In this document: positions 4,521-46,824 of the stretch, piece by piece
Layout of the letters: each line of letters opens with the position of its first letter
Position numbering within the stretch: position 1 is the stretch's first letter
Assembly: GCA_973895155.1 (NCBI GenBank)
Contig: OZ316894.1
Coordinates: 3,868,944 to 3,932,943 of the forward strand
Origin: Marsupella aquatica
Lineage: Eukaryota > Plantae > Marchantiophyta
DNA: 64,000 bases
Direction: 5' to 3'
The notes under the pieces: model-generated
The model's input: only the letters and a program-made list of their open reading frames with translations
Database searches by the model: none
What the model was told of the DNA's origin: nothing
Made by a program: the position numbers and the translations under genes

Positions 4521-7500
4521 TCAAAGCATATCAATGTAGGACAGGGCCCGGGAGACCTTTTTGTTCTTGCCGCCGGAGCCTATTTTCCCAACAGCGGGAG
4601 AATTGGAGACTTGTTTCAAGCTTGTACGCGGGGAGGCTGACCTTTCAATTTTTTCAGATTTCGCCTTTGCACGATGACCTTGGATCACTGTAGAACGATT
4701 GCCCTTTGAGTTCGCTGTAGACGAAGCGCTATCAAGGCTAACTTCCCGAGCAAGTTTGTTCTGACTTTGAATGCGAGAAATTTCGCCCAGGTCATTTCCA
4801 GAGTTTGCTCTGGAAATTGAACTGTCACTGCTTCCGTCCCGCTCCAGGAGGCGTAGCACCTGCAAATGTTGCACAACAACAACACAAAAACCATCAAAAT
4901 TGTTCACTAATTTCAACAAACGTACACATGTCCGAGATAAAACGAGCTTGCTTCTTTACCTCGCTCATCCGCGGGCGCTGATCTGGATCTTTGCTGATGC
5001 AAAGTCCAGCTGCTTTAACCATCCTGTCAACTTGCTCGACATCGTAGTCTTTGAGACGGGGATCTACGATGTCCACAGTCTTACCGGCATGGATCATTGG
5101 CCGTGCCTGTCATTCAATAACAATAACAATTTAAGGAATGTGGAACATTCACCTTGCTTTGCAGCTCAGCTTCTAATTAGTATACTTCTGGGTTTAGTAT
5201 ACGTTTGCTTCAATCTGGGAAACTAACTCTCTACGCGCATCAGTAAGTGAAAGCGTACCCATTCTGTCAGGCACGTCTCTCCTCTTGCTCTTGTGGCGTC
5301 AATTGCCTTCCGTCCGGTGATAAGCTCTAGTAGAACGACACCGAAGGAATAGACATCAGCTTTCGCCGTGATGCTCCCGGTCTCTGCATATTCCGGAGCC
5401 AAGTAGCTGCATATCCAAAATGCTTCAATATTCAAACCGTGAAGCTTTAAATTGATGAAACTACAGCCCTAGATCTCAGCGTGCGAAACACTAGGCAGGA
5501 GTGTAGGGAAGATGTCAAGGACACCCTTGGTACTGTCAGCTGACAGAGTTGAAACGCAGTACATTAAGGGCGTAAGAGTTGTTTTAAAACCAATTAAACA
5601 TCACGCGGATCACTTAATTAAAGTGCTGAAATGGGCTAATGCATTCCTCACCCAAGCGTGCCGATGACTCGTGTTTCCTCAGCTTCAGCACCACTTAGTT
5701 GGCTTCTAGCCAGTCCGAAATCTCCCACCTGTAAATTAGCATTCATTTTTACAATTCTTCTAAGCCGCCGAGAGTTCACAAGATAATGGATTGAACCGGC
5801 TGCCCAGAAAAGACATCACACACTGGCAGAAACGATGGAGGATCCACGGCCATTTTTGTGAAACGCTATTGACACAATGAACAGGAACGGACGGATCTGA
5901 AGGACTCCGACTGCTTCTCATTACAAATCTGGGTTTCTAGTGAATCAACCTCTTACTTACGAGCCATTCATCTGTGAGCCTACTGTGCTCAAGTCAAGCC
6001 AAATTAAGTGAAATGAGAGAGATTAAAGTACGTGAATGAACGGGTAAGAAAGTGGTACCATGGGAACAAAATCATGCGTAAGTAGAATATTATTCGGTCG
6101 CATATCACGGTGCACAATGCAACCGACACGACACTCTTCGTGCAAGTATCTTAACCCCCGTGCCGCTCCAACAGCAATCGTCCACCTCCACTTCCATTGC
6201 AAGACGTTGACGTTTTTCGCTGCCACAGCCGAATTACAATCAGTGGGAGCTTAACTATTCTTGGTGGCAGCTCCTGAACTGTGTTCCAGTCCCGTACGTA
6301 TACTACTCCGCCAACGAACCATTTGTGATCCCACTTATTTCCCATTTTAGGATCTTGATTGATCATAGCTACATAACTGGGAAACCGTTTTGGGTATTTG
6401 AAACAGTCGTTACACTAACGAAAATTTAATGAATCGAACCCAACGAGTACACAGATCTTGGCATCCGTAGCGACCTTGTCAAGTTATTACTTTGAACTAC
6501 AATTGAGAGTATTAGTCACATCGGACGGTCTCATACTTAAACAGTCCGATGTGACGAAAGGGATTGAAGTAAATAAATTAATGATCAAACAAATTCTATC
6601 AGGTAACACGGATCACACCATGCATTTACTGCACAACGTAACATTGCAACAAAATGGCATCGGGAATGGCATTCTTCAAAATCATTGCTTGACTTCACAA
6701 TTCGTAAACGAGAGGAAACTGCTCGTACCTGAGAGGTGCACATCCAGAGACTTGTTGCAGACGAACTCGTAGACCAGCAAGCGCCTATCGTTTTCAGCGC
6801 AGTACCCGATGAGAATCACAAGATTTCGATGCTGAGCATGTTTCAGAACTTGAACCTCTGCGTCAAACTCATCGTCACCCTGAGAGCTTGCGGCCTTATA
6901 TTGCTTAACGGCGATTTCTTGGCCTCCTTCGAGTTTCCCCCGATACACGAACCCGTACCCACCTTCAGCTATGTAATTCTCCTGGTCAAAGTTATCGGTA
7001 GCTGCTTCCAGCTCAGCGTAGGTGAATTCTTTAGCGTCACAGCCAAATTTCGGACCCGGTTTTCTACAAACTGAACAGAGAGGAGCAATTGGCCGAGGGG
7101 TCTTCCTCTTGCCATGGTGAGAATTATCTAGTAAACGTCGATTGTCCTCATTTTGGCTCGCGACCTTGTTCACCCGTCCGATCGGATTGTTACTGAGATT
7201 TGGAGCCTGTGAGATGAGATCCTCTTCTTGGAGAGATCGCTGGAGGGTCCTCACGGATCTCGGAGTTGCAGAAGGTGTACTTGGAATGTAGTTCAGAATA
7301 TTTATCAGCTCATCACCGCCTCTGTCACCGAAGCTTCGTGGAGCAGGGCGATACAAAGTTGCAACCGAGGTGGTCTTTGGCACCAGCGATTGCAAGTCTC
7401 CGGTTGACATTGAAGGTCGGCCTGTAATTTTGTAGATATCATCCGTGGATGAAGTGCCAATAGAGCCAACCTTCACGGTGGGATTCAAAGTATCATCTTT

Positions 7501-10500
7501 AAACTCTGAACAAACCTTGTCCAATTCAGAGGATATCCCAGGTCCCGATTCACTCTGACGATCCCTATCTGAATCATTTGTCATTTCATCTCTTTTAGAA
7601 CCTGTTGAAGAGATGCCTTTTGCAGAAGAAATATCGGGATCTGAAAATTGTTCAGAGGCGACATCGAGCTCTAAAACTTCTGCCAGCGAAGGTGAGAAAC
7701 TTATGCAGGACAGATCTGTCCTGGCAGAATGCCCTTCAAGATGAATTTGTTCAGCGGTTTGAGCTGAGATATTCGTTTTGGAAAGCTGTTCAAGTAAGGA
7801 GGTGGAGGAGCTACATGGAGCAGAAGATGATATGCTGATTTGACTAAAACTTTTGGACACCTCTTTGTCAACAGTCTTAGCAATCATTATCTGAGCGTTA
7901 TCGCATGTTTGTTGGTAGTCACCCGCTGGACCCGCGCCACAATTTTGCTCCCGCGGAATTGAGTGCAGTACCGGTATATTCTTGGTATCCATCAGTACGA
8001 TATAGCAGTTGACCAATTGCTCCACAAGATAACTCTTGTCGTTTTTCAAATGCCTGCAAGAATCACATTAGAGCGGGGTTTCAACATGTAAAAACTTTTG
8101 TTATTTTTCTCTTTCTATTTTTCAGTGCATTAATTTCCTATACGCCCTCCCTTGACTATTATGCGAAGTATCACAAAAATAGGAAAAGTAAAACACAAAT
8201 ATAGTGTTGCCACATAAAATAACATAATACCTTGTATCAAAATCATGACATTTGTTTTTAACTTCTTTTTATGTCTTTGGCCAATTACAGGCCCTTTTGC
8301 TTAGATTTTCTATTCAAAGATTCATTTTTTCTTGTTTGCGAAAAATCATTCAAATTTTTATGCACATGAATGTACTAGTTACAGGCATTATGACCCTCAA
8401 AACTTGGGGTGCTGCCCTAGTTTTTCAGGGCATTATATCTCATAATGTCTTCTAACCAAGACATTATTCATAATCTTGTCAGTGTAACCAAACCTTTGAA
8501 CTTGTATTGTCACTCAGGGCATGAGTTAGTCAGGAAAGGCATCGGGGCAACGCCCCCAGCACCTAGTGCATGTGTAAGGTACATGCATACCAACAATTCC
8601 CACCTACATCCCAGTGGCAAGCCTAGTGAGATCTCTCGATCTTGATTCTAATTAGAGCGAGGTCTAACACAATTTTTAATGAACCAAATCTCAAAAAATA
8701 ATACAAGGTTACGCATTGTTAAAAAATGTTGTTTATTTATTTATATATCATATCTATCCATACACTCGATTTTAAATAAATGTTTACCCAAGTGTCCCTT
8801 TAGCCTCGGGCACCTGATGCTTGAGATAAAAAGACATCTCTTTCAAACCTCGACATTTTTTTTACGTTGACATTTTATCTTTTTATTATTTTGTCATTTT
8901 TTTGTCTTCTTTCTCACAACTACATTTTTCTCTCACTCTCTATATCTTTTCTCCTTTAAGTCTTTTACTCACGTTGTCATTTTTTCTTTCCTCAACATCT
9001 TACTCTCATTTGTTTCTTTTTCCATCTCATATCATCAGGGATGCCGAGCATTGTGTAAGACGATCCAGAAACTTACTTGTCTAGGAAAACCCATTTTGCT
9101 CCAAGCTCCACTGCTTGCCTTGCTGTCACCACTTTCCTGTCGGGCCCGGGGGCTATATGGACCAAAGGACTGATCTGCAGCGTTCACGTGCAAGATCCAA
9201 CGTGCAAGATCCAATGTTCAGGAAAATATTTTCTTCCTGCTGCATTGGGTGGCCAGAGAGCTGGCCATCATTCTTGACAAACAAGTGAATCACTTTTCCC
9301 TCCGTTTACAAATCTGAATCTGGAATTGTCCTCACAGTCTATTGAGATATATCCAAATCGTAAATAGGAGTTCGCGAAAGAGTTGTTTGGTGGGCTACCA
9401 TGAATCTCTTGTACATGACACACCCAGCAACTCCTGGGTCCCCTCTTCATCGACAAGTCTTATTGAAATCTAATGAACTCCTCTTATGTGACTCACCTGT
9501 GTCGAGGCAAAGAGCTTCTGAAGCTCGGGATCACTCTGAATGCCCTTTTCGAACTCGGCCACCTTCTTGCGTTGCTCCTCCACTATAACATGGTAAGTGG
9601 TCCCGTTGAATTGGGCACCTGCGTCGGCCTTTTGCTTGTATCCCACTGCAGGGTGCACAGACACAGACCATCACGACAGACCAAGCACTCTCCTAGCTTA
9701 GGAATCCCACCATGTCGGCAGCAGGAACACGATTTCAAAGAAACACTTCACATGCATCTTTGTCATGAATTCCACTTTTGATAAGAGGGACCGATCTCCC
9801 CTACCAAACTCTGTGAATCATGTCGAAAGTTCTATATATATTTAGTCATGTAATTAGGCAACCGGCCAGATCTCATATACTTCAGTCACATGTGACATTC
9901 TTTTGCTGCTGCCCCATGAAGGCAGCTAGAATTAGTGCAGGCCTTCGCAGTAGCTACAGTTTGCAAGGCGTAAACGTAGTACGCTCAGCCCACGCCCAGC
10001 TTTGGACTCTAACGTTGTCCTGGACCGGCAGGCTTCGGATTCGGCAGGCTTCGGATCTGGCAGAGTTTTTGCCAGAAGGTCATGATGGGCTAGGCATCTT
10101 TGTCGTTGTAATCTCCCCAGAAGTGTAGATGGGACAGAATCTACACGACTTGGCTTCGCTTCTTCTATATCGATCGGCCGTCCACTACAGTACTAGACAT
10201 TTTTGTTGCTTATCTGGAGGCTGCACACGGACTCCTAACCGGGAAGCAGAAACCGAAGCGACAGGTCTTCTGCCATATGGAGCAACAGGAAAGCAACAGC
10301 GTCATCATTCCTCGAGTTCTCCGGTAAGAGGAGATATAGACGGCGATCTTTTGTCGACTTACGAAGACGTCAAATGCAAAACAAAGAGAAAAGACCGCAA
10401 AGTATCTAGTGGGCCCAAAGACAAAATGGCTCGGGCCCACACCACGCCATGCAATAATTACATCATTCTACTCTCCCGGAATCTCAGCCGGTGTTTGTGA

Positions 10501-14601: not shown

Positions 14602-17177
14602 CCCTGGATAGAGCTCATTTTTTAATACAAATATATAGAAATCATGACAAAAAGCATACATGATTATCAATTGACATACATCATAGTCATAAGTTTTCTC
14701 ATCCCCATGATGAGCCATGGAGTTATGGTCTAGAGGCTTCACTCTCGAAGCCTAGGCCCCAACTCTAGTTTGTAGTTGGTGCTTTATATTAATAAGTAAA
14801 ATCTACAATCTTCAATAATCTTCCTTCTCACGGAAAGTGTTTCCTGTCGCCCTCACATTGTTTCAAGTCCCTTTCATTTTTTTGGGCTACTGATCCATAG
14901 TCTGTACCATATCCAATTTCTAAATGTGGGTTAATTACTGGATATTTTGTGACAGTAGTCCTAGGCTGGTTGAATGGGTTTGGATCCACAGTTGTTCCTA
15001 CTCACTTTGAACAGGAGGAGAAGATTGACTTGGACATTGGTTCCCATTATGTGACAAGTCAATACTGGTTAGCCTTGATGAGAAACCAATCAGAAAAGAT
15101 TGCCAATGGAGTAAAGTCTGGGTACCTAGCTCTCTCCACTCTTAGCTGGTCTGGCCTATTCGTAAATGGGAAGGAATGGCGTTGGAGTTTAGTCATTTGG
15201 GTTGCTGGTGCTCATGACATGTACTGTCCGTTCCCATTCATTCTCAGTATTCTGATATTGGAGCAGTGGCATTCTGGCCTTTGCGACTATGGCTTCCTCT
15301 AATTTGGACTCTCCCACAATTGCTCACGAGTATCCGTAGCTTGGCAGCTTGGTCGGCAGTATACCATTCCTCGTCGCCTGGCTCTCACCTATCGGTCTTT
15401 GGCTGCTGAGAAGCATCTCTGACTCGAGCTCTGACTCCTTCTGCTTGGAGACATCATAGAGATATTTTACGAAGCCAGGGGAAGTGGTGGGTCCGGAGGG
15501 GAATAAATTTTACCCTCGGTCGTTTCTTCCTCATATGGGACACCCTCAGTAGTCCTTTTTCAGTCCCAGCTGGGGGAAACTGTTCTCGGCCATCTGGATG
15601 CGAAGCATGGTAGAGTTGGAAGATTTTGTCTGACTGATGTTCCCTTATTTCAAGGATACAGCAGTTAGGGACCCGGTTAGGGAGTATTGGCCTTCGTTGC
15701 AGTCTACCTAGCTGGTCCGGAAGGGTATCCCCATTTTGATAATGCAAGTTTGTGGTGGGATATAGCGACTGGTTGTTGGATTTAACGGGATGGATGGCAG
15801 ATGCTGGAAATTCTTGGGTTATGTGACATGGTCAGCAGGCGGCATTTGGAGTTGGTGGTGATTGGCAGCCAAGGGAGAATGGAGTTTGCTTGTTGCCCAA
15901 TTGCTTTCTTGGGTGTTTCCCTTTTAGATGGCTGCTTTTGGATGCCCGTTTGGATGTATGGGCTACTTTAGGCATATAGTATCCTGGGGTTCCTCCTTCC
16001 CTCTTTTTCTGCCCTCCTCTTGGCAGTCTGGGTGGTGGTTCCCATCGTCATATCTCTGGGATGCCCCTTCTCCTTGCCCCCCTTAATTGCTTGTTTTCTT
16101 TCTCTGTCTCCTACTATCAAGCAGTATTCATTGTTTTTGCCTTGGGTGTCCCACGTCTTCCTTGTTTTGGTCTTGGGCGCCCCTCTGGAATAAAGTTTCA
16201 GGGCTTGGCCCTTTCCCATTTAAAGACTAAAATTAGGTTAGCCTTAGCCTAACGCGGCCCCTTTCTCCGTTGCAGGGTACATTCAGGAGTTGCAGGTACA
16301 GGAGGGGAAAAAAACTTCTTTTTTTGGCTCCATATCACGCACAAAGTTTTGGGGGAATAAACACCCTAAAATTTAAGTCAATAAAGTTTTTTTTAAGAAT
16401 TGTTTTAGCCCTAAATTAATGGAATATTCTAAGAATATTCCCAAATTTGATTTTAAAAAACCCTACGATTCTTACAATTCTCAAAATTGGATTAAAATAA
16501 CCCTAATGTTCTTCAACAAAAATTTAAAAGTATTTCACTAAACCCAAAACACAATTTCGGACCGAACGAGAACTATTTCCTCTAAACGAGAAGTGTATTT
16601 TCATTTTCCGCCGAATCTCGCAAAATCGGCAGTTTTTTTCATCAAAAACACGTTTTTGGGGAAATAATGTAATTCGTATTGGAGTTCGGATTGAAACAGC
16701 AAATTTAATAATGATCAAAACCAATGAAATTCATGCTAACAAACATTCATATTATCAAGGAACAATTAGATCCGAAAAACTTTCTCCTCAACCTCATATT
16801 CACGCTCTCTGAAGATATATGAAAGGTCTTATCTATAAATCCATATCCACGTTTCGAGCCAAGTGTGATAACTGTATCGGACTCCGGATTTGAGCCATGA
16901 AAGCTCCGACCTAATCTCAGTTTTCTCAGTTTTTGGATATTTACCAAAAATATTTTACATCACAGTCGATAAGAATTACTGCACGGTTCGTCAAACTTAC
17001 CTTGCAGTTACCTCCGCAATTGACCAGTTACCTCCGCAAGTGACCATAGTCAACATGCCATTCTTTCAACAGCAATGCGCAGTCCGATAAAATTATCATG
17101 AAAACTACGGGCGACAAAAATACTAGTCGACAATACTAAGATCCTTCGGTTCATCGGTTAAATTTCAAAATTCCTAT

Positions 17178-17381
17178 CCATATGAAGAAAACTCTTCGCA
17201 ATACCAACATCAGATAAATTTATCGCTTCAATTTCAAAATTGCAACTTCCATATGAAGGAACCACTTTTGCAATACCAACATCAGATAAATTTATTGCTT
17301 CAATTTCAAATTGCAACTTCCATATGAAGGAACCACTTTTGCAATACCAACATCAGATAAATTTATCGCTTCAATTTCAAA
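17178..17381. repeat. ~72-bp tandem repeat (~2.8 copies), each unit carrying (A)GATAAATTTATCG
   Basis: Motif copies at 17212, 17284 and 17355. Confidence 0.9.
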
Positions 17382-17515
17382 ACTATATAATTTTGCCACG
17401 ATGCACGTGTGAGAATGAAATTGGAAATCCAAGAAATATACCCTTTTCTGCTATTTTGTCGTTTAGGGTGACAGCCAATCAAAAGTGGACACGTGGGCCA
17501 ACCCCTCAACAAACA

Positions 17516-17524
17516 CTATAAAAG
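17516..17524 (+). promoter_or_regulatory. Candidate TATA box of the transposase gene
   Basis: CTATAAAAG about 120-150 bp upstream of the ATGs at 17638 and 17668, preceded by a CACGTG G-box at about 17490. Confidence 0.45.
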
Positions 17525-17637
17525 GGCCACCGCCGATAAGTTTTTGGCGTCATTATCGAGAGTAGAGTTTTGGGAGTTGTGTTCTTGGAGCAACATTCTG
17601 TCCGTTGAGCCTTTCATTTTCCCTGATTGCGGGAGGA

Positions 17638-20600
17638 ATGCAAAGCCCCATAGTGTCTCGGATAGCCATGTCTCAATCAAACACAGATTCACCTTCCAAT
17701 TCAGTTGAATCCTCTCCTTCCAGTTCAGTTGAATCCTCTCCTAATCTTGTCGCTCGCTGTTTGCCAAGTCGCATACTTAAAGCTCTACCTCTCTCACAGC
17801 AAATAGTGCCCGAAATCTCTGACTCAGATTCTGATGCAAGTTCTGGTCCTGAGCCCAGTGCTTACTATGTGTCGCCTAGTAAACCTGAGAAGCGTCGTCT
17901 CTTGAGCGTTCCATTGCCAAGAAATGAGAAACTTTCAATCCCAGGTTTAGGTCCGAGACGTCGCTTCAGGCCATCCATCCCAGGTTATGGAGAGGGTATC
18001 CGACGACCGATACGCGTATCGTAGTCAGCATTCAAGTCGCCACATTCAACACAAGTTCAACGACGGATCTTTCAGTCTCTGGGTGAGGATCGGGACACAT
18101 AAATACAAAGACCGATACGGCGATCGGTCTTTGCATTGCCTGGACTGGATGTGCGAGCAAGTGAGGGAATCGGACTGCGAAGTCCAGACTCGGCCCTTTC
18201 TCGAATGGTCCGTGGGAATCGTGGTGAACAAGTGCTCAATTTTCCAGCAGCTCGCGGAGTCGTTGGGACTGCACGTGCGAATCCAGAATCTCTAAGTTCT
18301 CAAGGGCGGACTGTCATTGGTTCCAGGCTCCAAGTATCAAGGAGAGGTCTTAGTGGCGTTCGGGTTATGTATAGAGAGCCACGGAGTCCAATTGTGTTTT
18401 CAGATGAGTCAAGTGCATCGGAGGACGAAGATGAGGAAGGAGATAGAGAATCCGATATAACAGCACAAGTTGTGTCTGAATGTTTAGAAGGAGCTATCGA
18501 AGAGAATAGTTATAGTCGTCTATTCAGTGCCCCTCTAAATGCGTCAAGGAGATCTATAGAGGATGGTAGCTCAGCAGAGAGTGATGCATCTATTCGCGAG
18601 GCACCTGAAGGACCAGAAAATGCCAATGTTATGAATGGATTTCAAGCTGTAGAGAAGTCAAATGAGCCTAGTAAAAAAGATAGGGACCGAATTACTAGGA
18701 AAGACAATGTGATAAATGACAAATTGAATAGAAACAAAATGAGAGAAATTCATAAGTATTCGTGTTGTGATAATTACTGTCTGAGGAATTTGGGTCTGCT
18801 AGTCGTGACGAAACAACGCACTTATTACTATGGGCTATCCTACCCAGAGAAGAACGTCCTTCTAAGAGGATGTGTGAAGGGTGGGCTTGCTGGTGCAAGT
18901 GGTTACTCAGTTAGCGGTAGATCCTTTTGTCGGAGTGGTTTTAAGAAATTATTTTCACTAGGAAATAATCGTCTCCAAAAAATCTCGTAGAACATGTTTT
19001 CTCGGATACAGATCGGTATAGTTTGTCGAGAAAAATCACCCGCACATCTTGGTCTCGTCCAATGGCTGGATGATTTTTTTTCCACAAATGTCGAGAGTCT
19101 CCCCAACAAGGATATCTTTCATTTACCTGACAATTGGACAAAAATAGAAGTTTTTGATGCCTTCGAGTCCGAAACTCTAATGCGCCAAGAACAAGGCATG
19201 ACATATTCGTGGTTTGTTCGCATTTGGAACAAGGAGTTTCCTCACGTGCGCATCCCCAAAAGGAGCCATTTCTCCACCTGCGCCCCGTGTACTGAATTCA
19301 AAGCACTCCGTGACAAGACAAGACTCGAAGCAGAAAAGAGTAAGTTTCTAAACCTGTGTGTTACTCCCGATAATTTTATCGGGTTGAGTATTCATGTGCT
19401 TCTTCTTTGGCCATGTGAGTGAATATATCGTTTGAACAGTTTGAATACTGAACCTGATAAATTTATCGCTATCACAATTTTTCATTACGGTCTTGTGTTT
19501 GAATACTGAACCCGATAAATTTATCATTGTCAGGGTTTATCATTACGGTCTCGTGTTTGAATACTGAACCCGATAAATTTATCGCTGTCAGGGTTCAACA
19601 TTGCGGTTATCATGTTTTGTCCTAAACATTTTTATTATTGTAGGAAAATTCTCAACATTGCTAAACAAGCATCGGAAGGCACAAGCAGTCGAGAGGGAGA
19701 AGTTAGCAAAGCACCGAAGCAAATGTTACAAGAGTCTGGAGAAATATTTGGGCATCTGTATTGATGGAATGGATCAAAAGACGACAGAGTTACCTCATTT
19801 CATTCGGTGTCCGAAGAATATGGATGAAAAGTATTTCATCCCCGTACACGTAGTGGGTTGTTTGATCTTCAACAAACAATTAAGTTCAAATGTTTTTTTG
19901 AACTATCCAAATATTCACAATGATAGCAACCTGACCATCCACGTTATCCAGCATATTCTGAATACCTGGGAAGGTCTGCTCCCTCCAGTGCTTTACCTCC
20001 AGCTTGATAACACAACTCGGGAAAACAAGAATAAATATCTTATGGCATATTTGAATATGTTGGTGGAGATAGGTGTTTTCCAGAAAATAAAGGTTGGTTT
20101 CCTATTGGTGGGGCACACCCATGATCAAATTGATCAAATGTTTAGCAAGTTTTCTTCAAAATTGAACAAGCGGAAAGCTTTCGGGTTGGACACTATTTCA
20201 GCAATCATAGAGGAATCCTACAATCCTACGGCAAAGATATTTTTCGTCGACGAGGTTGCCGATTTCAAGAAATTTGTGTCAGACAAGGATCAAGCAAATG
20301 ACAAGGATATGGATGGTTAGGTTCTACGTACTCTCCATAGCATAAGTGCTCAAAAACAATTTCGGATTACTAGAGTACTCGAAGATGGAAGTGCTCGGTC
20401 CGTATTCCATGCCAAACATCTTTCAACGACAACCAATTGGGGGGAGACGGTGGATTTTGTTCGGTACATTCCATCATCTGGAATGTGGGTCGCACCACAA
20501 ATGGCATTGAAGTCGGCCACGGGAGCGACAGGAGACAATGAAGAGCAAGAGAATGATGCTGAGGAACAAGATGAGCGGGCGGCTCAAAGTTATTTGTCAA

Positions 20601-21253
20601 CTCTTCAAAAATATCGAAGAGCAATTGAAGATGGATTCAATTACTTTGACGACGAAGATCGTCTATGGTGGGGTCATTTTTTTGACAAACAAAAAGAAGT
20701 GATTCAGCACCACCTGAAACCTGCACAATGGAATTTTGATTGGAGTTGGCCCAAGGTAAACGTACAGAGAGAACTTCCGAGTAATCCTACGGAAGCAGCA
20801 ATGGAACCTAGCTTGGTTGATAAAGTAGCGGGTGTGAGGACAGTCATGTATTCCGGAAGTCGAATAAAAGTCACAGAAATTGGAGACTTCAAGGATCTAG
20901 AGGTGAATACTAAATTTGCAATGATATGTGTAGCAGCCCATCAGGATCCCAAGGGAAGACCATTCTGGATGGCAAAAGTGACTGAGATTCTCACAAGAAT
21001 TAACGACATCCCGGAGCGGATTAAAATCACTTGGTATGCAATGGATTCGGAGGAAGAGTCTGCAATTGAAGGCAGATATTATCCGGAGAAAGAGGCTTCG
21101 TCTAGCAAAGTACTAGAGGATGAATTGTCCCTAGCAGAAACTGTTGTTTATGCGTATAACTTTGCGTTATTGGCAAATAGTACTATCCCTATACAAATAA
21201 GACGAATCATTCAAAATGCAATGGAGACTGTAGTCATTGATAGTCGAAGCTAG
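17638..21253 (+). pseudogene. Sola-like DDD transposase (DUF7869-like from memory) with C-terminal BAH/Tudor-like domain; four in-frame stops
   Basis: One reading frame plus a phase-1 intron at 19340-19643. Motifs CCDNYC, FCRSGFKKLFSLG, FSTCAPC, ICIDGMDQ, LQLDNTTRENKN, VGHTHDQIDQMFS. Stops TAG 18022, TAA 18100, TAG 18988 and TAG 20318, with no frameshift. Confidence 0.85.
19436..19612. repeat. 58-bp tandem repeat (3 copies) inside the transposase intron, each with the 14-bp palindrome
   Basis: Motif copies at 19455, 19513 and 19571. Confidence 0.9.
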
Positions 21254-21584
21254 TTGTAGGTTTAAGTTATAATGGTTATCGTTCCCATGAATATGTACAG
21301 TGGTTATCGTTCTGGGACTATGTACTCCGCAGCTATAATGATATCTTGTTTTTTGAAATAATTGCAATGACAAACCAGTTAGAGCATACAATGCTAAGTC
21401 CGATAAGATTATCGACAACTCCATTCCCCCAGCTAGAACACCGCGATAGTCCGATATATGCAAAGTCCGAAAAATTTATCGCATTAATAAAGGTGACAAA
21501 GGTTCTTCCTCATGGAATACAGAATCCGATAAATTTATCGACAACTCCATTGGTGATTGACATTATCCTAACGAGCACACGCAA

Positions 21585-24500
21585 CTAATCTAATAACATG
21601 TCGTTGAGATCATCCTCATTTGGTGTTCTGGGAGGCTCTTCCTCAGTTTCTTCTTGTTCCTCTTTGGTCTCCTTCACGACCTCAACTACGTAAGTCGATG
21701 TCCCGAGAACACCCAATTGGCCTACAATTGGTGGTTGAATCTCATGACCTTCAACGCCATGCCCTTCAATCTGGGATTCTTCATATAAATTCCAGTTTGA
21801 CTCCAGAATCACGATCTGGGATTTCACAAAATCAATCTGCGCAGAACTCTTATCAACAGCACAACCCTGGCGAGAATTGAGGAGCGTAGCAGCTAATGTC
21901 GATCCAGTTCCACAACAAAGATCAATAACCCAATCCTCTTTCTCAGAGTAATGGGAAACAAACCAAGCCCCCAAACCAACAGGCTTCTGATACGGGTTCA
22001 CAACAAATCCCAACGGATCAACGGACTTCTTGGTTACACATGGAACCTTGATGATATTGACGCGAGACTCATCCGGTTGGAAATTGTACATGTCCATGTT
22101 CCGAATGCCTTCCTCGCTATAGAAACCTATCGACCAGTTCTCAAAACCCCACGCCAATCGAGCTCCAGCGGGACGCTCATGAATGTTAGTCTTCTCCCAG
22201 ATTCCAGCCTTGACCCCACAGTTGCATACACTCTCCAGTGTAGACATCACCATATGCGTTTGTTGTAGTGAATGGAACACAACAAACCTCCACTGCTTAG
22301 CGGTCGTCATCTTTGAGAAACTTGTCAACATGTCTAAAATGTCCTTTTCTGTGAATGCTACTTCATCAAACTCCGAACCAGGAGCATTAAAACCATACGG
22401 AATATCCGCAACCGCAAGGGTGTAAGCCCTTGGCTGAACAAAAGAATCCAAAATTTGAACATCACCAACATGGAGATAGTAGGGAAAAGAATCCCCGTCT
22501 GTATTTTCCCATGTTTGTTCAAACGCTTCTGCTGTGCCCTCGCCTAAGGACCTCAGCCGATTGTACTTATCGATTGCAGCAAGCACAAAATTCTTAAACA
22601 CATAAGGGATTTCAGTTGAGGGAACAATAACCTCCCCACAGAATTATAAGTGACAGCCGGAACCACTTTGCTTTTCCTTTTTGAATTAATCTTCAGCTGT
22701 AAAAATGTCAGACACATCTACAGTTAGAATAGCGTGAGATGAATGCTAAAGCCGATAAAAATCTCGCGATGGAGCACGCTAGCCGATAGATGGAATCGCT
22801 TAGAAACCAACAAAGGAATGCTAAAGCCGATAAAAATCTTGCGATGGAGCACGCTAGCTGATAGATGCAATCGCTTAGAAACCAACAAAGGAATGCTAAA
22901 GCCGATAAAAATCTTGCGATGGAGCACGCTAGCTGATAGATGCAATCGCTTAGAAACCACAAAGGAATGCTAAAGCTGATAAAAATCTCGCGATAGAGCA
23001 TGCTGTGAGAGGAATGCTTACCGCGTCACTCAATTTCTCCGCCCATATGCCAAGGACCGAGACATCTGTTTCGTTGGGAAACATTTCTCTGCATGTTGCC
23101 CAATCTGGCTGACCAGATATCTGCAAAAATAGTTTCTTCACCTTGGCAAGCTTTTTCAACTTCTCACCTTCCTTGTGCATTTGATCCAAAGTGATCACCT
23201 TCCTGATAACCCTATTCAAGAGACGCTTGACATGCTCCTTATTTGACAGTCCTTGGAGACCTCGAAATGAATTTAAGTTGAGGTCACCAGCAAGTTTATT
23301 CATTTTAATCTCCCTTACCATCAAAGGTTTTACCTTTCCCTTTGCGTTCGTCGTTGCCACAATTTTTTTGGGTTGTCCTAAGACAATACCTTTCTCCCAC
23401 ATCTGGAAAATCTGCTCCTGAAGATCCCAAATTTCACCTGTTCGGAAAGCAATTTGGAAAGCCGGATCATGTTTGGCCATGGAGTCACGAACTCCTGGCG
23501 TGTACTCCATCATGCATTCTTGACAACATGCTTCGCGGACATCTTTAGTCGAGCCCACACCCATTTCAAGAAAAATATTGTGACAAGTGCGAACTTGGTC
23601 AATTTTAGTCATGTTCTTCCAATACTCCTGGTCATAGTTATGCTGGAAGCCTAACTTTCGGACCTCGGATCTCGTAAGCCCAGCGTAAACCCAAGCTTCC
23701 AGCTCACCATATATTTGCTTCCCGTACATTTTAAACAACTCGGACTTTGCCCGAGCACCATGATTCCCTCCAATAATTCTATACTTCCATACCCTTGACT
23801 TCAGGATGTCCCAATCTGCGGTTGTGGGACAATCCTTCGGATCCACACACAGCACGAATGGGGCACTGAAGTTGGTGGGGTTTTTCATGAGAAGTATCTT
23901 GATATTTTCCACATGCAATCTATCCACTGGTCTAATCAAAGTTGACAAATCCCCCTCCTCATCAAATATGAGATTGTCGACATGCAGAAGCACAGTTGTC
24001 CTTTGCACCCTTCGTTGCATCAGAAGACTGAGCTCTGCCTTTATCGCGTCCGTCTCATACATCGAAAGAGCCATCTCCTCCTCCTGATCAACCTACAAAA
24101 GCATTGCAAATTCAATTAAGGAAAGAAACTGCGAGATTTTTATCGGAGTTCACATTTGTTCAACATAACTCCACAATCCGCAATTCAGGAAATAAACAAC
24201 GAGATTTTTCTCGGATTTCGTATTTGTTAAACAGTACAACGACGTAGTACTTACCAATGGCGCCGCAGAAACCGCGATTGGAACTGATGGAATTGACGGA
24301 GCTCTATCTACTTCTACAGCCACTATCTCAGTCCAACCAATACTCTTCCTCTTTGTGCTAAGTCCAGAACCAGATGGCCTGGATCCCTCGGATTCTTTAC
24401 TTTTGCTTGGTTTAACAGATGGTCCTCGACGGTTGCCCCGGCCTCTCCCACTACCGCCAGTTTCCTGGCTCTTTTTCCCAACGTCAGAGGTTCCCGCGGC

Positions 24501-25223
24501 ATCTCCCCTGCCGCTACCTCTCCCTTTCCCTCTTCCACTTCCCGAAACCCGACCAGAAGTTGTAGGTTCGTCCACGTCAATATGTGTAGAGGATTGCAAT
24601 GGTTCTTTTCGCCCCGATATTTTATCGGCATTAGAACCACCGCTGCCACTTGAACCTGGTTTCTTGAAAACAATTTTGCGGACAGGTTTGAACTCTTCAC
24701 CCACAAGTCTCTTGTACTCTGCGTTCACCCTTGGAAGCATGATGGCATCACAATCTTGCACATACTGGCCGATCCAAGCCGAACCCATAACATTCATCTC
24801 TCTTGTTGCCCAAACTTCGGCAACAAGGGGATCTTCTGGATAACTGTCTATCGATTTCTCATCAAAGTTATCGAGAGTAACAATGAGAGATGTGAAACCC
24901 TTGCGCCCACACATTGTCAAGAAACTAAGGCCCTCTGTCAACACTTTTCCCTCCCCGTGGCCAACCATGAACTCGACGATGGCAACAACAATGACAGGGC
25001 CATACGAAACATTAACCTTCGCCGATTTTTGCAACTGGACCCAAAGGATTGGGGTAGCACAATCTTCGAAACCCGTGGACTGTAATCTGGCGTCACGGAA
25101 GTACCATGACTTCTTGATACACTTGACCTCTTCACAAATGTCTTCACTCGTCCAAATTGCATTGGTGAGGCTTGTCATGAGACTTTCTGCCTCAGCAGAT
25201 CCACTCTTTCCACTAGCAGCCAT
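21585..25223 (-). CDS. Spliced ParB/Srx-like domain + beta-class DNA amino-methyltransferase (N6_N4_Mtase-like)
   Basis: Exons 25223-24255 and 24092-23022 join in phase 0 with GT-AG sites; the last exon ends at 21585. ParB-like motif YRIIGGNHGARA. MTase motif IV LAVADIPYG comes before NPYQKP and motif I VIDLCCGTGS, which is the beta permutation. The last junction needs either a weak GAG acceptor at about 22632 or a 1-nt frameshift at about 22634 after the acceptor at about 22697. Confidence 0.8.
22741..23002. repeat. 75-bp tandem repeat (~3.5 copies) in the intron between the ParB-like and MTase exons
   Basis: The unit contains CGATAAAAATCT(C/T)G at 22753, 22828, 22903 and 22977. Confidence 0.9.
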
Positions 25224-25422
25224 GGCAAAGTTTGCAAATAAACAAATTCCAATGCAAAGAGCGATAAAATTATCACCGCCAATCTCACAGCACATGTGGA
25301 CATGACATCTCATCACACAAGGACAAAGAGACCCGCAATGCAAATGACCGATAAAATTATCACAAAAGTGAGCCTTCTTTAAATTGACAGCCGAGTGTAC
25401 AGGTCGAAGAATCAGCTACGGA

Positions 25423-25462
25423 ACCCTAAATCCAAAACCTTAACCCCTAAACCTAACCCTAA
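25423..25462. repeat. Degenerate telomere-like (telobox) CCCTAAA tract
   Basis: aaccctaaatccaaaaccttaacccctaaacctaaccctaa, about 200 bp upstream of the ParB-MTase ATG. Confidence 0.6.
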
Positions 25463-25719
25463 TCATAGTTGAACCTCGCCAGAGCGAAGCGTTCGATCCG
25501 CTTCTTGGGCCATTGGGGAATATGAGTGACGCGATGATCATAAGCCCACAGCGAATGGAAATCAACTTCACCAGTCTCAGGATTCACTACTGCTATTGAA
25601 TACCGGCGTGACGAAATGCCACAACAAGCATTTGTGCAGCATGGACAGATCTCACCATTGGCAAGGACGTTCGTCCACAGGCAACTTACATAGATCAAGT
25701 TAAAGAGCGCACAGACCGG

Positions 25720-26172
25720 CTAGGGGGGGAGTTGACGAATCTTGTATGAATATAGTTTCCCACTAGTGTCAATAAAAAACTCGGTGGCAAGAGGATTGTC
25801 CAGCTCATCAATCACATCCTGAATCTCATCGAATGCTCTACGTCTGTTGTCGACATAGAATTTTGGCTCATAAGCAGGATTGCCCTTCACAACATGACAG
25901 CAGTGGAGTATAAAACGTCTTACTGCACCGGTTTTCAAAAAGAGTAGGATAACTCTTCTAGAAAATCCAACATATCTATCCCACCGAATATAAATTTCTC
26001 CCCCTACCTGATCTACGTAGAAGTGAAATGCGCTATGGTAAAACGGTTTTACTACCAGCCTGCATATCTTTAAAATTAGTGACTCATCCAGCCTCCTTAG
26101 CTGGTCCAGCATGGCTCCATTCCCCCATTCTGGAGGATCCAAGTAGGGTACAAAAATGCGTCGCTCGAGCAT
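25720..26172 (-). CDS. Transposon cargo ORF, 150 aa, unknown function
   Basis: ATG-initiated ORF with globular composition, co-oriented with the other cargo ORFs. No recognisable motif. Confidence 0.45.
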   Translation of the reverse strand: MLERRIFVPYLDPPEWGNGAMLDQLRRLDESLILKICRLVVKPFYHSAFHFYVDQVGGEIYIRWDRYVGFSRRVILLFLKTGAVRRFILHCCHVVKGNPAYEPKFYVDNRRRAFDEIQDVIDELDNPLATEFFIDTSGKLYSYKIRQLPP

Positions 26173-26487
26173 GGCCTGATCACCGAATAGAAATCAGGAA
26201 TAAATTTTGGAGAACATACTAATTACAATTCTACAAGTTTCATCCAACTTTACAGTACCTTGTATAACGGGCTGTGAAGCCAATGCACTTGTCAGCTAAT
26301 CGTCCGAAGAGGCGCAAACAAATACACTCTGGACCACACAACCCGAAGTCAGGGGAGGCAAAGTCAATTACATTCAAAGTGTTTCTTTACAAGCTCTTCT
26401 CGAGCAAACCTTAGAGCACCCAAAATCGACTAGAGGAATGAGGAGTGCGATAAATTTATCGGATGTTCGCAGCAATGCCTCATCCAC

Positions 26488-27036
26488 TCAGACTCGTCCA
26501 TGCCATGCAAGAATTGTCCGCTTCCCGCTTTCTCCAAGATTTATCCAAACTCTACGAAACTGATCTAACTGCTCATACGAAAAGCACCCAAGCATATCTA
26601 TGGGAGGGAGGAAATGAGTTTCCTCTCGGAAGACCCTAGCAATATGTATGTTTGAGAGAAGGTCGGCATTAGGAATGCTTGCGAGCATTTTGTTTATGTC
26701 ATTGATCTCACGGACTGCATATTTCAATAGTGCCCAAAATCGTGTACCAACAACAAGATGGTTCCATTTCTTTGAGGTGGCTCCAAGACAAATGATTGTT
26801 CTCATTCGAGTCAGTCGTTCTTCTGGTAGAAGTTTTAGGTCAAGGCCAAGGTGTTCATCTTGTATGCAAGACAAGGCTAGGAGGGGCCAAATGTGAGATT
26901 CAACGAGTTGATCGGGAAGTCCATTCAACAAACTTCCGCATTCCACACCGGGCACTTTTCCTCGAATATATTTCCTACGCTCGTGGGCTACAACGGATCC
27001 CATCTTTGCAATGATTAGATTCTCAGACGCAGCCAT
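26488..27036 (-). CDS. Transposon cargo ORF, 182 aa, F-box-like
   Basis: LLNGLPDQLVESHIWPLL…ICLGATSKKWNHLV matches the F-box pattern LPxxL…I…L…VSKxW, with an insertion. The ATG context is gccATG on the coding strand. Confidence 0.55.
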   Translation of the reverse strand: MAASENLIIAKMGSVVAHERRKYIRGKVPGVECGSLLNGLPDQLVESHIWPLLALSCIQDEHLGLDLKLLPEERLTRMRTIICLGATSKKWNHLVVGTRFWALLKYAVREINDINKMLASIPNADLLSNIHIARVFREETHFLPPIDMLGCFSYEQLDQFRRVWINLGESGKRTILAWHGRV

Positions 27037-27230
27037 GAAGCAGAGCTACCAAAACTACCAATAAAAATACCTTCAATCACCAGGTGTAACCGAACACATC
27101 CACAGTACCAACCCTGCACGACAATTTAACGATTAGGACTTGTGATGTATTATATTCGCTACGCAAGGGTAGGACTTGTTTATTTAAATATGTCCTTACA
27201 AGACGCGCCTCAATGCAAAGGTCAAAACAC

Positions 27231-27560
27231 TCATCGTGAAAGGTTCATCCAAGGGTCTTCGTTCCAAATCTTACAACAGAAGTGAGCCTGTTTGTGGTAC
27301 TTGTTGCCAAGACGACGACAACAATAGTTACAAGAAAACTCCAAAGAATGTAAACACGTCGTTAACATCAACCTCGAACGAATTGGAACTCCTGCATCAT
27401 TCATTCCACAGAATTCAATGCGAAGAGGATTCTGCCTATCTCCAGGATCAGTACCACCCATCCACAATGCTCCTATACCGATGGGGAGAACTTTGAGTCG
27501 CACGAGTCTCTTGTACAACCGGCGTGCACGTTTGACACAATTTTCAAGGAAGATAGCCAT
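27231..27560 (-). CDS. Transposon cargo ORF, 109 aa, Cys/His-rich C-terminus
   Basis: CLHSLEFSCNYCCRRLGNKYHKQAHFCC could bind metal. No family recognised. Confidence 0.35.
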   Translation of the reverse strand: MAIFLENCVKRARRLYKRLVRLKVLPIGIGALWMGGTDPGDRQNPLRIEFCGMNDAGVPIRSRLMLTTCLHSLEFSCNYCCRRLGNKYHKQAHFCCKIWNEDPWMNLSR

Positions 27561-28152
27561 TTGTCACAATACCTGTTGTCCACGGAGTGCAATCGACCTT
27601 CCGTTGTGCCTCCTAAACCCAGCAACACTGCGACATCAGAGATGAAGATGAGTCTCCAAACAAAACAAAGGAAAGTGATTCTCACAGGAGGATGCGATAA
27701 GTTTATCGAACTCCGCATTCAAATTGAAAATATGACTTCCTCAGACACCTAAGCCCTGAATTCAATCTTTCACAAAAATGACAACTCCGATAAATTTATC
27801 GGATTCTCAATTACTCCTCTTTCCATGAAAGGAATGAAGACTCCAATAAATTTATTGGAATGAAGGCAACACCTCTCTAAACACTGGATCAAATGGTTGC
27901 AACAGAGGAATGCAGAATGCGATAAATTTATCGCAGTCCGCTCGGATCTGGACATTTTACACTAAATGACTAGTTAGTCTTACATGGAGAACTTGAACAG
28001 GAATGGCTGTTCCGATAAATTTATCGGGTTTTCGGTAGAAAGAGTCGAATCCCTTGGGAGGAATGTAAGACTCGATGGGAGTTTGGTATTCGCTCAGTCA
28101 GGAGATATTTGCTCTGGCGAAAGCAAACGTTTTATGGGCAGCCCGCTTCCTC

Positions 28153-28226
28153 TTTATATAGGAGATGCTCTAAACCATGGTTAATTTCCCCTTAACCATG
28201 GTTAAGTTTCCCCTTTACCTGGGTTA
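28153..28226 (-). promoter_or_regulatory. Candidate promoter for the minus-strand cargo cluster
   Basis: TATATAAAG on the minus strand at about 28153-28161, preceded by three ~20-bp repeats containing the palindrome TAACCATGGTTA (28171-28226). Confidence 0.4.
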
Positions 28227-29376
28227 GTGCGTGGTCGTTCCTGGATTACGCGGTTCGGACCAAGTTACTCGCAGTTCGGACTTTTTCACTGACGGAATGT
28301 AAAACCCGATGCACGTATCGCTCCCTGCATTCCCGCGGTGATGCAATGGAGGAAAGTGGCGTTTCGGAGAGTTTTTGCCAGTTTTATCGGTCATTGCATT
28401 GCCTTAGAAAAAAACGAGATCGGGCTAAACGAGAACTCCGACACACTTCTCGGTCGGTCCAAAATCGTGTTCCAATAAAAAAACTTTAAATTTATTCGCG
28501 CGTTATGGGTTGGACGAAAAGAAGTGAGGGACCCCGGGGGTTCCTTTGTCCGCTTTGAATGTCTTTCACCTACATATGCTAGTGCTGTACTACAGTGTTC
28601 ACCACAAGTAGCCTCGATAACATTAATTATTTGTGCAGCCTAATGTTATTGGGTTTACTTTTCAATTAACCCTGCAATTAACATAATATTAATTATGGAC
28701 TAACACTAATAGTGCAGAGTCACATTAAGTAACACATTAAGCGTAACACTTCAGGACTCCTTTGTGTTTAACACGATTTGGAGAGGTAGGGTACCGGCAA
28801 TACTAATTCTGTTTATGCCTAACATATTTGGAGATTTTGCTTGGAGGGTCACATTTCAAAGTCTACTACCTCATACAAGCAATAGTCACAGGGTTCCAAT
28901 GCACAGACTGATAGAAAAAGCATTGTTCTCTCACCTTTGACAGCTACATGTAGGGAACAAAGTGTGTTTCACACACCCAAGATGATTAAAAAAATAAAAG
29001 GTATTGTTAGAGAACAGACTCTCAACAGGGCTACAGTACTTGCCAAAAATTGCTAGGCAGCACAAATCAGGAGTAGGAGGACAAATGTGAACTACACACT
29101 CAGGGAATTCCAACCCTGAATAGTCTTTAGTTAGAGCAAAAACCCACCACATTTAGTGTTATCTTCTAGAATTACTAACATTATTAGGGACTAATACTGA
29201 TTCCGAGATAAGACTAATTTGAGTGAACAAGGAACGTTTGTATTCTCAAGATAAAGATGTATGCGCATTAACTCCAAGATTGCATTATTTGCTCAACATC
29301 CTATAGCCATATTGCTAGATATTTCAGCAAAAACAATTCTCCAAAGCTAACATTCGAGTGTGCATTACCTTACTAC

Positions 29377-29550
29377 CCCGGGGTCCTCACTCTTTTTTTT
29401 CCAACCCATCGCGTGTGAAGAAGTTAAGGGTTTTTTTAATTCAATTGGGTGGAAGACTTTGAAAATTTTGTTGAAGAAAAATAGGGGACGGTGGTCTAAT
29501 CCAATTTTGAGAAATTATACAAACTGTAAGGGTTTTCAATTTAGGGTTTA
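29377..29550 (+). mobile_element. Truncated family-A MITE
   Basis: Starts CCCGGGGTCCTCACT like 32897 and aligns for about 150 bp. Confidence 0.7.
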
Positions 29551-29589
29551 AAAATATTTAAATATATACTTTCTTTTCTTATTAAGTTT

Positions 29590-30353
29590 AAGGTCCACAT
29601 TTTTATATGGACTAAAAGTTGGCTACTAGGGAAAAGGTTGGGTTTTTCACTTTAAAGAGTGAGTCATACATAAAGTTTCAATTGGTTTTTTTTCTTTTTC
29701 TACATATTTAAGATTAGAAACAAATTCTAAACATGTTGTAAGTTTTATTCAGAGATTTTAAAATTTTAATAAAATCCCCAAAAGCTGCATGGCTAGTTTG
29801 GGTGTAGTATATATATCTCATTTGGTTTAAACAATTTTGTAGTCATGTATATTAATAGACTTCTTCCTATTATACAGGTATGCAACTCCCCTTTTTATAA
29901 TGCAAGTTTTTAATTATTTGTAATGGCCGCCTTATATCCAATTGACCATCTTAGATTTCATTTTAGTCTACTAAAGTCTTGTACCTCTCAACTCAAGGAA
30001 TACAAAAATGTAACTTGAAAACCAAACCAAACATGTTTTGATGTAAAAAACTCAATCAAAACCAAATTAGATGCCTTTTTTTTTAATACAGGAGTCTATA
30101 GCCAAACTAGCCATTTGGTGGGATTTTTATTAAAATTATAAAAATCTTTAAATAAATTACAACATGTTCAAATATATTTTTTAATTTCATATGGGAAAAA
30201 GAAGAAAAACCAATCCTTTTATATGACTTGGATTTTTTTTAAAGTGGAACATCCAGGTTTCTCAAATTTTGATTATTTTGTATGGCCAACTTTTTAGTTA
30301 GGCATATAAAAATGTTGACCACTGCAGGCCTATTATACAAGAGTTTCGTACCC
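29590..30353. mobile_element. AT-rich non-autonomous element family C; other pieces at about 52444-53130, 58210-58556, 59391-59540, 60330-61207 and 62260-62330
   Basis: Shared blocks GGGTATGCAACTC…, ggtctacatttttatatggactaaaagttggct and ttgagaggtacaagagtttagtagactaaaatgaaac occur in both orientations. Boundaries are approximate. Confidence 0.65.
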
Positions 30354-37108: not shown

Positions 37109-37456
37109 GGTCAATTGCAAGATTGAGGGGGGGCAAAATGACGCAAAAAGGATTAGCTCAAAAAGGAGAGAAAAAGGACTCAAAGATCATAAAGATTTAG
37201 TTGAACACCACTTCCATAAAGGTGGGACACACTTCCAAAATTGTTGTGCACACTTCCAAGAAGATTGGGACTTCCTAAAAACCTGGACACACTTCCAAAG
37301 ACTTGGCATGCAAGATCTCACCATCCAATCTCAACAAACTAATCCTAGCCATTTGGTGTAACACCTTGTCCACCCCTTGTAAATTGGAAAGGACTGGAAT
37401 CCTTTTGGTGGAGAAATTGGATATCCTTTTTGCCCCCCTCAAGCTTGCAATTGACC
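37109..37456. mobile_element. Family-D MITE, 348 bp, 4-bp TSD
   Basis: TIR GGTCAATTGCAAG(A/C)TTGAGGGGGGCAAAA. TSD AGGA on both sides. Internal acacttcc repeats. Confidence 0.9.
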
Positions 37457-37548
37457 AGGAGGATTTGTCGTGTGGACCAGCTTTGGTAGGCTTGATTGTC
37501 AGACCCTCTGTCTTTGCCTTCTATGGAGGTAACGGTGCAAAAGACACC

Positions 37549-46776: not shown

Positions 46777-46824
46777 TCACGGGGGAAGAAGAGGAAGGAA
46801 TCCGCCACTGCATCCGGGTTACCG

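Follow-up and report, generated by a model that had tools for sequence, protein, structure and literature searches.

Transposons that carry a ParB-like protein together with an amino-methyltransferase have been described in algae. In the brown alga Ectocarpus, Sola1-1_Ec32 is a large DNA transposon of 21.5 kb whose accessory gene lies on the strand opposite to the transposase and is described as joining a ParB-like domain to an N4C/N6A methyltransferase in one protein of 1104 aa (PMC12477816). Self-modification of the element is already proposed in that paper, the main text of which makes no mention of palindromes. In Bostrychia, the accessory genes PAG2 and PAG3 of Plavaka transposons encode a PF01555 methylase and a ParB-like protein, with inverted-repeat arrays beside the ParB-like gene that are proposed as ParB sites; according to the text available, the transposase is of the unrelated EnSpm type and the two functions reside in separate genes, the methylase being fused to SET and the ParB-like domain to a 2OG oxygenase (10.1101/2025.02.11.637652). 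The accessory protein VANC of the Arabidopsis VANDAL (Mutator) transposons, for which anti-silencing has been demonstrated, goes with family-specific short motifs of 8-9 bp, non-palindromic and different between families, which are tandem-duplicated in introns, spacers and ends, and the text available describes no ParB or methylase domain in it (PMC5735166). Lastly, MpDN4MT1 of Marchantia and N4CMT of bdelloid rotifers are eukaryotic proteins with a prokaryotic-type beta-class (permuted) fold; they are described as host genes rather than cargo, with an SPPY motif and demonstrated 4mC activity, and they lack a ParB part, having either no extra domain or a chromodomain (10.1101/2021.02.12.428880, PMC8885841).

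The locus described here lies in a land plant, the liverwort Marsupella aquatica, within a window of 64,000 nucleotides. An 11.9-kb transposon carries, opposite to its transposase, a gene for a predicted protein of about 1050 aa that likewise joins a ParB-like part to an amino-methyltransferase, the likeness to the Ectocarpus protein being one of description. As both this fusion and the idea of self-modification have been published for Sola1-1_Ec32 (PMC12477816), a reading of the locus as a new kind of system is not supported. ParB-methylase cargo is thus already known from algae, while the land-plant case and the anatomy of its candidate target sites, as read from the DNA, are apparently new: neither was found in the literature searched, which consisted mostly of open main texts, and a prior description is possible.

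The element extends from 16548 to 28471 and is a cut-and-paste DNA transposon, with terminal inverted repeats (TIRs), a target-site duplication (TSD) and empty sites all present. The left TIR of 32 bp (16548..16579, plus strand) is identical at 26/32 positions to the right TIR with which it pairs (28440..28471, minus strand), and both are bordered by a CCAA duplication (16544..16547 and 28472..28475). The insertion lies in a host repeat, empty copies of which jump from 16547 to the sequence beyond the right CCAA; the empty-site joint 16547->28492 was recovered in 3/4 runs, as were loose ends at 16547. Tens of near-identical copies appear to be present in two public runs, X1, in which single contigs about 99% identical have a depth of 510-550 against 13-15 for the flanks, and X2, with element contigs at 829-1323 against 33-34, although such depth-based estimates are rough and X1 or X2 is possibly the same source as the window. 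In small shares of the runs X5-X7, only short scattered pieces of the element were seen. The CpG observed/expected ratio is 0.84 in the element and 0.68 and 0.54 in its flanks.

The transposase gene is read on the plus strand, from a predicted start codon in exon 1 (17638..19339), through a GT-AG intron assigned by sequence reading (19340..19643), to exon 2 (19644..21253), which holds the DDD core and a conserved C-terminal part. The core matches the Pfam family DUF7869 (E 1.6e-49), and the acidic motifs IDGMD, QLDN and GHTHDQID indicate the DDD type, so that the TIR- and TSD-bounded element with a DDD transposase, as first proposed, is borne out. The Sola superfamily reportedly combines a DDD transposase with a 4-bp TSD, a definition that the element matches and under which it probably falls; a motif diagnostic of Sola was not found in the transposase, and DUF7869 is an unnamed family. 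A probable third gene, consisting of two ORFs of 157 and 185 aa on the minus strand (25720..27045) with a weak F-box-like match (E 0.078), is covered by multi-copy contigs in the public runs. This gene had escaped the sequence-only reading, as had the palindrome array and the broken state of the copy.

The accessory gene is convergent to the transposase and has three exons on the minus strand, separated by GT-AG introns. Exon 1 (24255..25226) encodes an N-terminal domain of ~185 aa followed by a Gly/Arg/Ser-rich linker, and appears to join exon 2 in frame with no stop. This domain is conserved, being 31% identical in L001 and L003, two of the related metagenome loci; its fold is unassigned, and no family match was found in Pfam or NCBIfam. 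Assignment to the PPR proteins was rejected, given that the PPR matches had no individually significant stretch. After intron 1 (24093..24254), exon 2 (23022..24092) encodes a ParB-like nucleotide-binding fold with the motifs GGNHGARA and HNYDQ and a helical region, and intron 2 (22697..23021) leads to exon 3 (21585..22696), the methyltransferase part. All the motifs listed at the outset were located in this spliced gene: IIGGNHG at 23777, DIPY at 22406, QKP at 21989 and DLCCGTGS at 21923.

Exon 3 encodes a predicted beta-class amino-methyltransferase. The beta-class enzymes that its predicted structure resembles include CcrM (E 7.9e-13), and its catalytic motif precedes the SAM-binding motif, the permuted order of the PF01555 type. 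6mA enzymes head the fold matches, with close scores, and rotifer N4CMT and M.PvuII are also among the matches. In profile searches the window exon scores 25.2 bits against the Pfam N6_N4_Mtase model, for which the cut-off is 26.7, a threshold passed by 19/30 of the distant relatives scanned; the best profile match of the methylase is N4CMT (E 0.016), and an NCBIfam scan of six protein pieces gave no score near any cut-off. The motif D-[IV]-P-Y is found in 19/19 aligned close relatives, and among 64 long distant relatives DxP[YFW] occurs in 34, nine of them with canonical DPPY, and SPPY in none. A close tie to the 4mC enzymes of Marchantia and rotifers, which are of the SPPY type, is therefore not upheld.

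With regard to exon 2, it carries a ParB/Srx-type N-terminal fold according to its structural model, which agrees with the identity first assigned to this gene. The model aligns with ParB/Noc/KorB proteins over ~280 columns (Foldseek, E 3e-5); the ParB-like fold compares with PadC at Z 11.2 (rmsd 2.8, 100 aligned), and the helical region aligns with ParB/KorB DNA-binding domains, the match to that of KorB (Z 5.2, rmsd 4.0, 111 aligned) being weak taken alone. The HTH_ParB profile matches 4/21 rows, weakly (best E 0.011), and Pfam ParB_N has no match in the window exon. As in the ParB/Noc/KorB CTPases, which have palindromic sites of 14-22 bp, a ParB N-terminal fold is followed by a helical, putatively DNA-binding region, and the domain order is that of a Morganella phage ParB-methyltransferase fusion. 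Unlike those proteins, the accessory protein comes from a spliced eukaryotic gene, has an extra N-terminal domain and has another sequence in place of the arginine patch. The consensus of this patch in ParB is GERRxRA, which is absent here, the alignment rows that cover the position reading GNHGARA, or GNHRARA in one; owing to this replacement, a CTP clamp is doubtful. One residue of the predicted recognition helix reads P for the window as well as L001, and H for L003-L005, five loci being too few to infer co-variation between reader and palindrome.

A palindrome recurs throughout the element, with 19 sites (≤2 mismatches) inside against one in the 52 kb outside. Six sites lie upstream of the transposase (16866..17547), with three grouped in a 71-bp tandem array; four in the transposase intron, three of which form a 58-bp tandem array; three in the spacer between the convergent 3' ends (21254..21584); one in accessory intron 1; two just upstream of the accessory gene (25250..25362); one between the ORFs of the third gene (26448); and five, with one half-site, toward the right end (27695..28400). 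Intron 2 of the accessory gene holds a 75-bp tandem array, each unit of which is an AAT-N8-GATAA half-site. Half-sites are present in 6/6 non-coding blocks, and 36/40 lie outside the two main coding regions, though these regions make up 55% of the element. Measured from the element ends, the outer clusters lie at distances of ~320 bp and 70-450 bp, the TIRs contain no palindromes, and the intron sites are 3-6 kb from either end. In Bostrychia, by comparison, the repeats adjoin one gene rather than every intron, and a fixed flanking motif is not described in the text available (10.1101/2025.02.11.637652); by analogy, that case suggests that such repeat sites may follow the ParB gene.

The palindrome core falls into three classes, those of the window, of L001 and of L002-L006, all of which contain CG. 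What appears invariant is an AAT at -18..-16 from the palindrome centre, an offset that was spotted by eye before counting, with core patterns chosen locus by locus, and that is found in 21/46 half-sites of the window, 28/30 of L003 and 20/40, 5/12, 14/16 and 8/10 of the further loci listed. Leaving out half-sites with similar flanks, the counts are 20/41 (window), 17/35, 3/7, 25/27 (L003), 6/7 and 4/5; at other offsets in the same filtered sets, the mean number of AAT occurrences is at most 0.96 and the maximum is 4. Support is weak in L006, with AAT in only 2/8 half-sites, and no repeated motif was seen in L007. Since L001-L007 come from one metagenome sample, these data amount to three core classes rather than seven independent cases. 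Neither AAT nor its complement ATT contains a cytosine.

Neither of the two outcomes named beforehand as refuting the initial proposal, a missing methyltransferase fold or relatives that lack the gene, was seen. The gene is kept by other members of the family: a methylase lies tail to tail beside the transposase in 4/6 close metagenome loci, at 50-75% protein identity, the pairing being limited in L001 to 28 aa at the contig end and in L003 and L005 by contigs that end ~300-360 bp past the gene. The sequence P0066 spans exon-2 into exon-3 sequence. Between relatives, the accessory gene has a pN of 0.28-0.35 with pS saturated at 0.77-0.84, resembling the C-terminal part of the transposase, and is, judged by these substitution patterns, under purifying selection. 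Among the distant methylase matches, 25/146 combine ParB and methylase regions in one protein, and fused relatives occur among gene models of Chara and Ginkgo; a weak search for fused longer forms gave 0/7996 candidates, a result contradicted by those 25 proteins. Of the pattern matches, 0/75 were confirmed in viral contigs and 0/32 in prokaryote genomes. The low identity of phage methylases, which reaches only 22-31% for the best-covered among the matches listed, and the relatives in Chara and Ginkgo point to an old transposon cargo rather than a recent bacterial pick-up. In a quick tree of 40/146 distant matches, ten close proteins, six loci and five prokaryote-type rows, with Marchantia and algal sequences left out, L002-L005 grouped and the prokaryote-type rows stood apart from the rest (SH-aLRT 97). 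The phylogeny that had been called for thus separates the family from these rows and names no donor.

The copy in the window is defective in both genes. Its transposase has four premature stops, at 18022, 18100, 18988 and 20318, the first two being sense codons in the public runs, and exon 3 of its methylase is frameshifted by a 1-bp deletion near 22633. The proposal that the element moves a methylase around the genome hence does not apply to this copy. Differences of the C-to-T type fall at CG/CHG in 24/24 cases in one comparison and 10/13 in another, decay that indicates a copy unshielded from host 5mC and owing to which the higher CpG ratio inside the element is not read as protection. Of the roles first suggested for the gene, self-marking is indirectly supported by the sites that combine palindrome and AAT, and protection from host methylation is not borne out by this copy.

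The reading that we favour, and to which we would give roughly even credence, is that the palindrome serves as the docking site of the ParB part, from which the methylase tethered to it places 6mA within the AAT and so marks the transposon as self. A ParB-type dimer would read the variable core via its helix-turn-helix region, the fused methylase would reach the invariant AAT 16-18 bp from each centre, and the mark or the bound protein would label family copies, a labelling that could keep the two promoters and the introns usable under host CG/CHG silencing, by analogy with VANC; alternatively, the mark might serve the timing of transposition. The defective window copy would depend on intact sister copies. 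It seems unlikely that the ParB region reads core and AAT together while the methylase writes 4mC at the core CG, or loosely nearby, thereby blocking or mimicking host 5mC. The CG inside all three cores, the presence of N4CMT and M.PvuII among the fold matches with N4CMT as best profile match, and a target base that the motif does not fix would suit this, the more so as the domain family is described as having switched repeatedly between 6mA and 4mC (PMC8885841). Conversely, SPPY occurs in none of the 19 close and 64 distant relatives, what stays constant in the site is AAT, which lacks cytosine, the context of the CG being variable, and 6mA enzymes lead the fold matches, by a narrow score margin.

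Somewhat more doubtful is the possibility that the palindromes are transposase-binding repeats, comparable to subterminal repeats, with the ParB-methylase acting on host genes or new insertion sites. Bipartite binding sites are common for transposases and clusters do lie near both ends, yet the sites also occur in introns far inward and in neither TIR, and similar arrays are described with a ParB-like gene on another transposase superfamily. We would be slightly more sceptical again of a weak or dead methylase fold acting as a scaffold for base flipping or DNA binding, in a protein that would be an anti-silencing or transpososome-assembly factor without methyl transfer. The DIPY motif lacks the first proline, the SAM motif reads DLCCGTG where the consensus is DPFxGSG, the Pfam score is under the cut-off, and methylases borne by DIRS1 are described as likely inactive; against this, 19/19 close relatives retain D, P, Y, QKP and the glycine loop, and canonical DPPY is found in distant relatives that share the DLCxGxG loop. 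A one-off event, in which one element alone picked up a gene from its host or from bacteria, has the broken copy as its sole point in favour; it is refuted by the multi-copy family and by the same arrangement at saturated synonymous divergence, and we consider it extremely improbable.

Land-plant N6A methylases are described as few (PMC4738411), and the accessory protein is a candidate sequence-specific 6mA writer in this group. The self-marking proposal made for the algal element names no target site in the text available (PMC12477816), whereas the comparison of subfamilies puts forward a candidate, a palindrome that varies and is accompanied at fixed distance by an AAT that does not, which makes the idea directly testable. 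More tentatively, and with doubt outweighing belief, this may be a streptophyte-wide transposon family with a private adenine-methylation code, in which a ParB-derived reader, a subfamily-specific palindrome address and a bacterial-type methylase would place 6mA in an AAT at a set distance of 16-18 bp, countering host 5mC silencing in land-plant chromatin, and which would also have seeded the ParB-methylase genes of Chara and Ginkgo. The element would thus carry a predicted natural address-plus-writer module, the specificity of which appears to have changed over evolution.

The element at 16548-28471 is closed by 32-bp inverted repeats, the two ends being identical at 26 of 32 positions, with a CCAA target duplication on either side. 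It is inserted into one of the arms of a very high-copy, roughly 1.3-kb inverted-repeat element (window 16330-16547 and 28476-29600), which is either a MITE or foldback-like, and the ends are confirmed because empty copies of this repeat exist. The two flanks, once joined, align to the opposite repeat arm near 29.2-29.7 kb, and public contigs of the host repeat pass from 16547 straight to the sequence after the right CCAA, a joint present in three of the four public sequencing runs; loose contig ends lie at 16547, also in three of four. The transposase, encoded by two exons on the plus strand, matches DUF7869 (E 1.6e-49) and contains three acidic motifs. Sola elements are defined by a DDD core with a 4-bp target duplication, and this element, whose core and duplication fit that definition, is a probable member. 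With regard to copy number, individual contigs matching the element interior at about 99% identity reach depths of 510-550 in run X1, versus 13-15 for unique flanks, and 829-1323 versus 33-34 in run X2, which indicates, as a rough estimate from runs either of which may itself stem from the window's own source, tens of close copies.

The accessory gene, as read from the sequence, lies on the minus strand and has three exons, about 1050 codons and GT-AG introns. The sequence-only reading of a TIR- and CCAA-bounded element holding a DDD transposase and a convergent spliced gene was correct, and predicted structures also bear out the methylase and ParB-like parts that it proposed. Exon 3 (pLDDT 69.6) resembles beta-class amino-methyltransferases, with CcrM as the best match (E 7.9e-13) and the rotifer N4CMT and M.PvuII just below. 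Exon 2 (pLDDT 74.4) resembles ParB, Noc and KorB over about 280 columns (E 3e-5), and PadC with 100 aligned residues (Z 11.2, rmsd 2.8). A language-model comparison places it beside DUF3723, unnamed animal clusters and one ParB_N cluster; its helical part, taken alone, is weakly similar to ParB DNA-binding domains, and the ParB arginine patch is replaced. One residue of the predicted recognition helix (window 23465-23489, minus strand), a possible specificity position, is P in the window and in the related metagenome locus L001, both with CCGAT-type cores, H in L003-L005, with GGAGCGAGAC-type cores, and G in other relatives. The N-terminal domain of exon 1 (window 24672-25226, minus strand) is conserved, with 31% identity in L001 and L003; a search for its family and a structure match found none.

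A 14-16-bp palindrome is present 19 times within the element and once elsewhere in the window. Its sites occupy every intron and spacer and avoid coding sequence (36 of 40 half-sites), and otherwise unlike tandem arrays often have it in common. L001 has its own 16-bp quasi-palindrome and L002-L006 their own 22-bp one; no repeated motif was seen in L007. In all three core classes AAT is found at -18 to -16 from the centre, an offset that was spotted first and counted afterwards, in 21/46 half-sites in the window and, among loci that all come from one sample, in 28/30 in L003, 20/40, 5/12, 14/16 and 8/10 in others and a weak 2/8 in L006. The signal remains strong once tandem duplicates are taken out. 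The L001 core is asymmetric, and 19 of its 20 sites carry AAT on the same side; the L003-L005 cores are symmetric, with AAT mostly on both sides.

Since three base pairs are not enough for a motif to be located alone, AAT would most simply be read by a domain tethered to the core-binding part, with the fused methylase as the evident candidate. The most likely function, put at roughly even odds, is that a dimer of the ParB region would bind the core and 6mA would be written in AAT by the methylase; such marks may identify members of the family at their promoters, introns and ends, and thereby hold off silencing or time transposition. AAT would offer the methylase only adenines as target. That 4mC is instead written at the CG of the core seems unlikely: the Marchantia and rotifer enzymes, as far as the sources consulted describe them, are SPPY-type and encoded by host genes (10.1101/2021.02.12.428880, PMC8885841), whereas all 19 close rows have D[IV]PY as their catalytic motif, and among 64 long distant matches SPPY is absent and DPPY occurs in nine. 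Less likely still, the palindromes may be repeats bound by the transposase, and marginally behind this comes a methylase acting as a non-catalytic scaffold.

A one-off gene capture is highly improbable, as the gene is kept in other family members. Six of ten metagenome loci are closely related to the element, and the transposase stands tail to tail with the accessory gene in four of them (in L001 by just 28 aa), the other two stopping too early to show this neighbour. Synonymous sites between window and relatives are saturated, with pN about 0.3. The methylase exon has 30 close proteins at 52-72%, and the ParB exon 20 close matches. A profile search with the methylase gave 1644 matches at E 0.001, and 25 of the 146 new proteins listed from it also matched the ParB profile. 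Ten proteins were looked up, four being from Chara braunii and one from Ginkgo biloba. The related proteins P0101, P0116, P0119, P0124 and P0107 are ParB-methylase gene models, several from C. braunii and one from G. biloba (Gb_37443, with the motif DIPH as read in the model). Phage methylases are distant, both in protein matches and in the tree.

The window copy is broken, with transposase stops at 18022, 18100, 18988 and 20318, three of which are sense codons in public runs, and a base absent from the methylase exon near 22633 that is present at 567/629 depth in X1 and at 30-44% in X2-X4. Among 35 typed differences, a set that leaves out five rows of the public-run comparison, 24 are of the C-to-T type (12 CG, 12 CHG, 0 CHH); a second set has 6 CG, 4 CHG and 3 CHH. 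Given this decay mainly at CG and CHG, the copy was probably methylated by the host.

A probable third gene (25720-27045, minus strand) comprises two ORFs with a weak F-box-like match (E 0.078) and a palindrome site between them; it had no match among the proteins retrieved, and is either a captured host fragment or a second accessory gene. The window also contains a receptor-like protein kinase exon (6685-8067) and a RINGv E3 ligase (55700-56251), both host genes on the minus strand, and a cluster of long ORFs of 183-399 aa (37279-48332), with raised GC near 46-49 kb and no match in a Pfam search, which is possibly another element. The kinase and RINGv genes, both of plant type, together with the CG and CHG decay and the named relatives, indicate that the host organism is probably a land plant.

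The element is a variant of a recently described transposon design. Within the portions consulted, the ParB-methylase arrangement and the self-marking idea are already published for Ectocarpus Sola1-1_Ec32 (PMC12477816), inverted-repeat arrays adjoin a ParB-like transposon gene in Bostrychia (10.1101/2025.02.11.637652), and VANC proteins likewise go with family-specific motifs in non-coding regions (PMC5735166). A literature search covering passages of papers found no land-plant ParB-methylase transposon and no fixed flanking motif. The probable occurrence in a land plant, together with the predicted target site, makes this system well worth testing.
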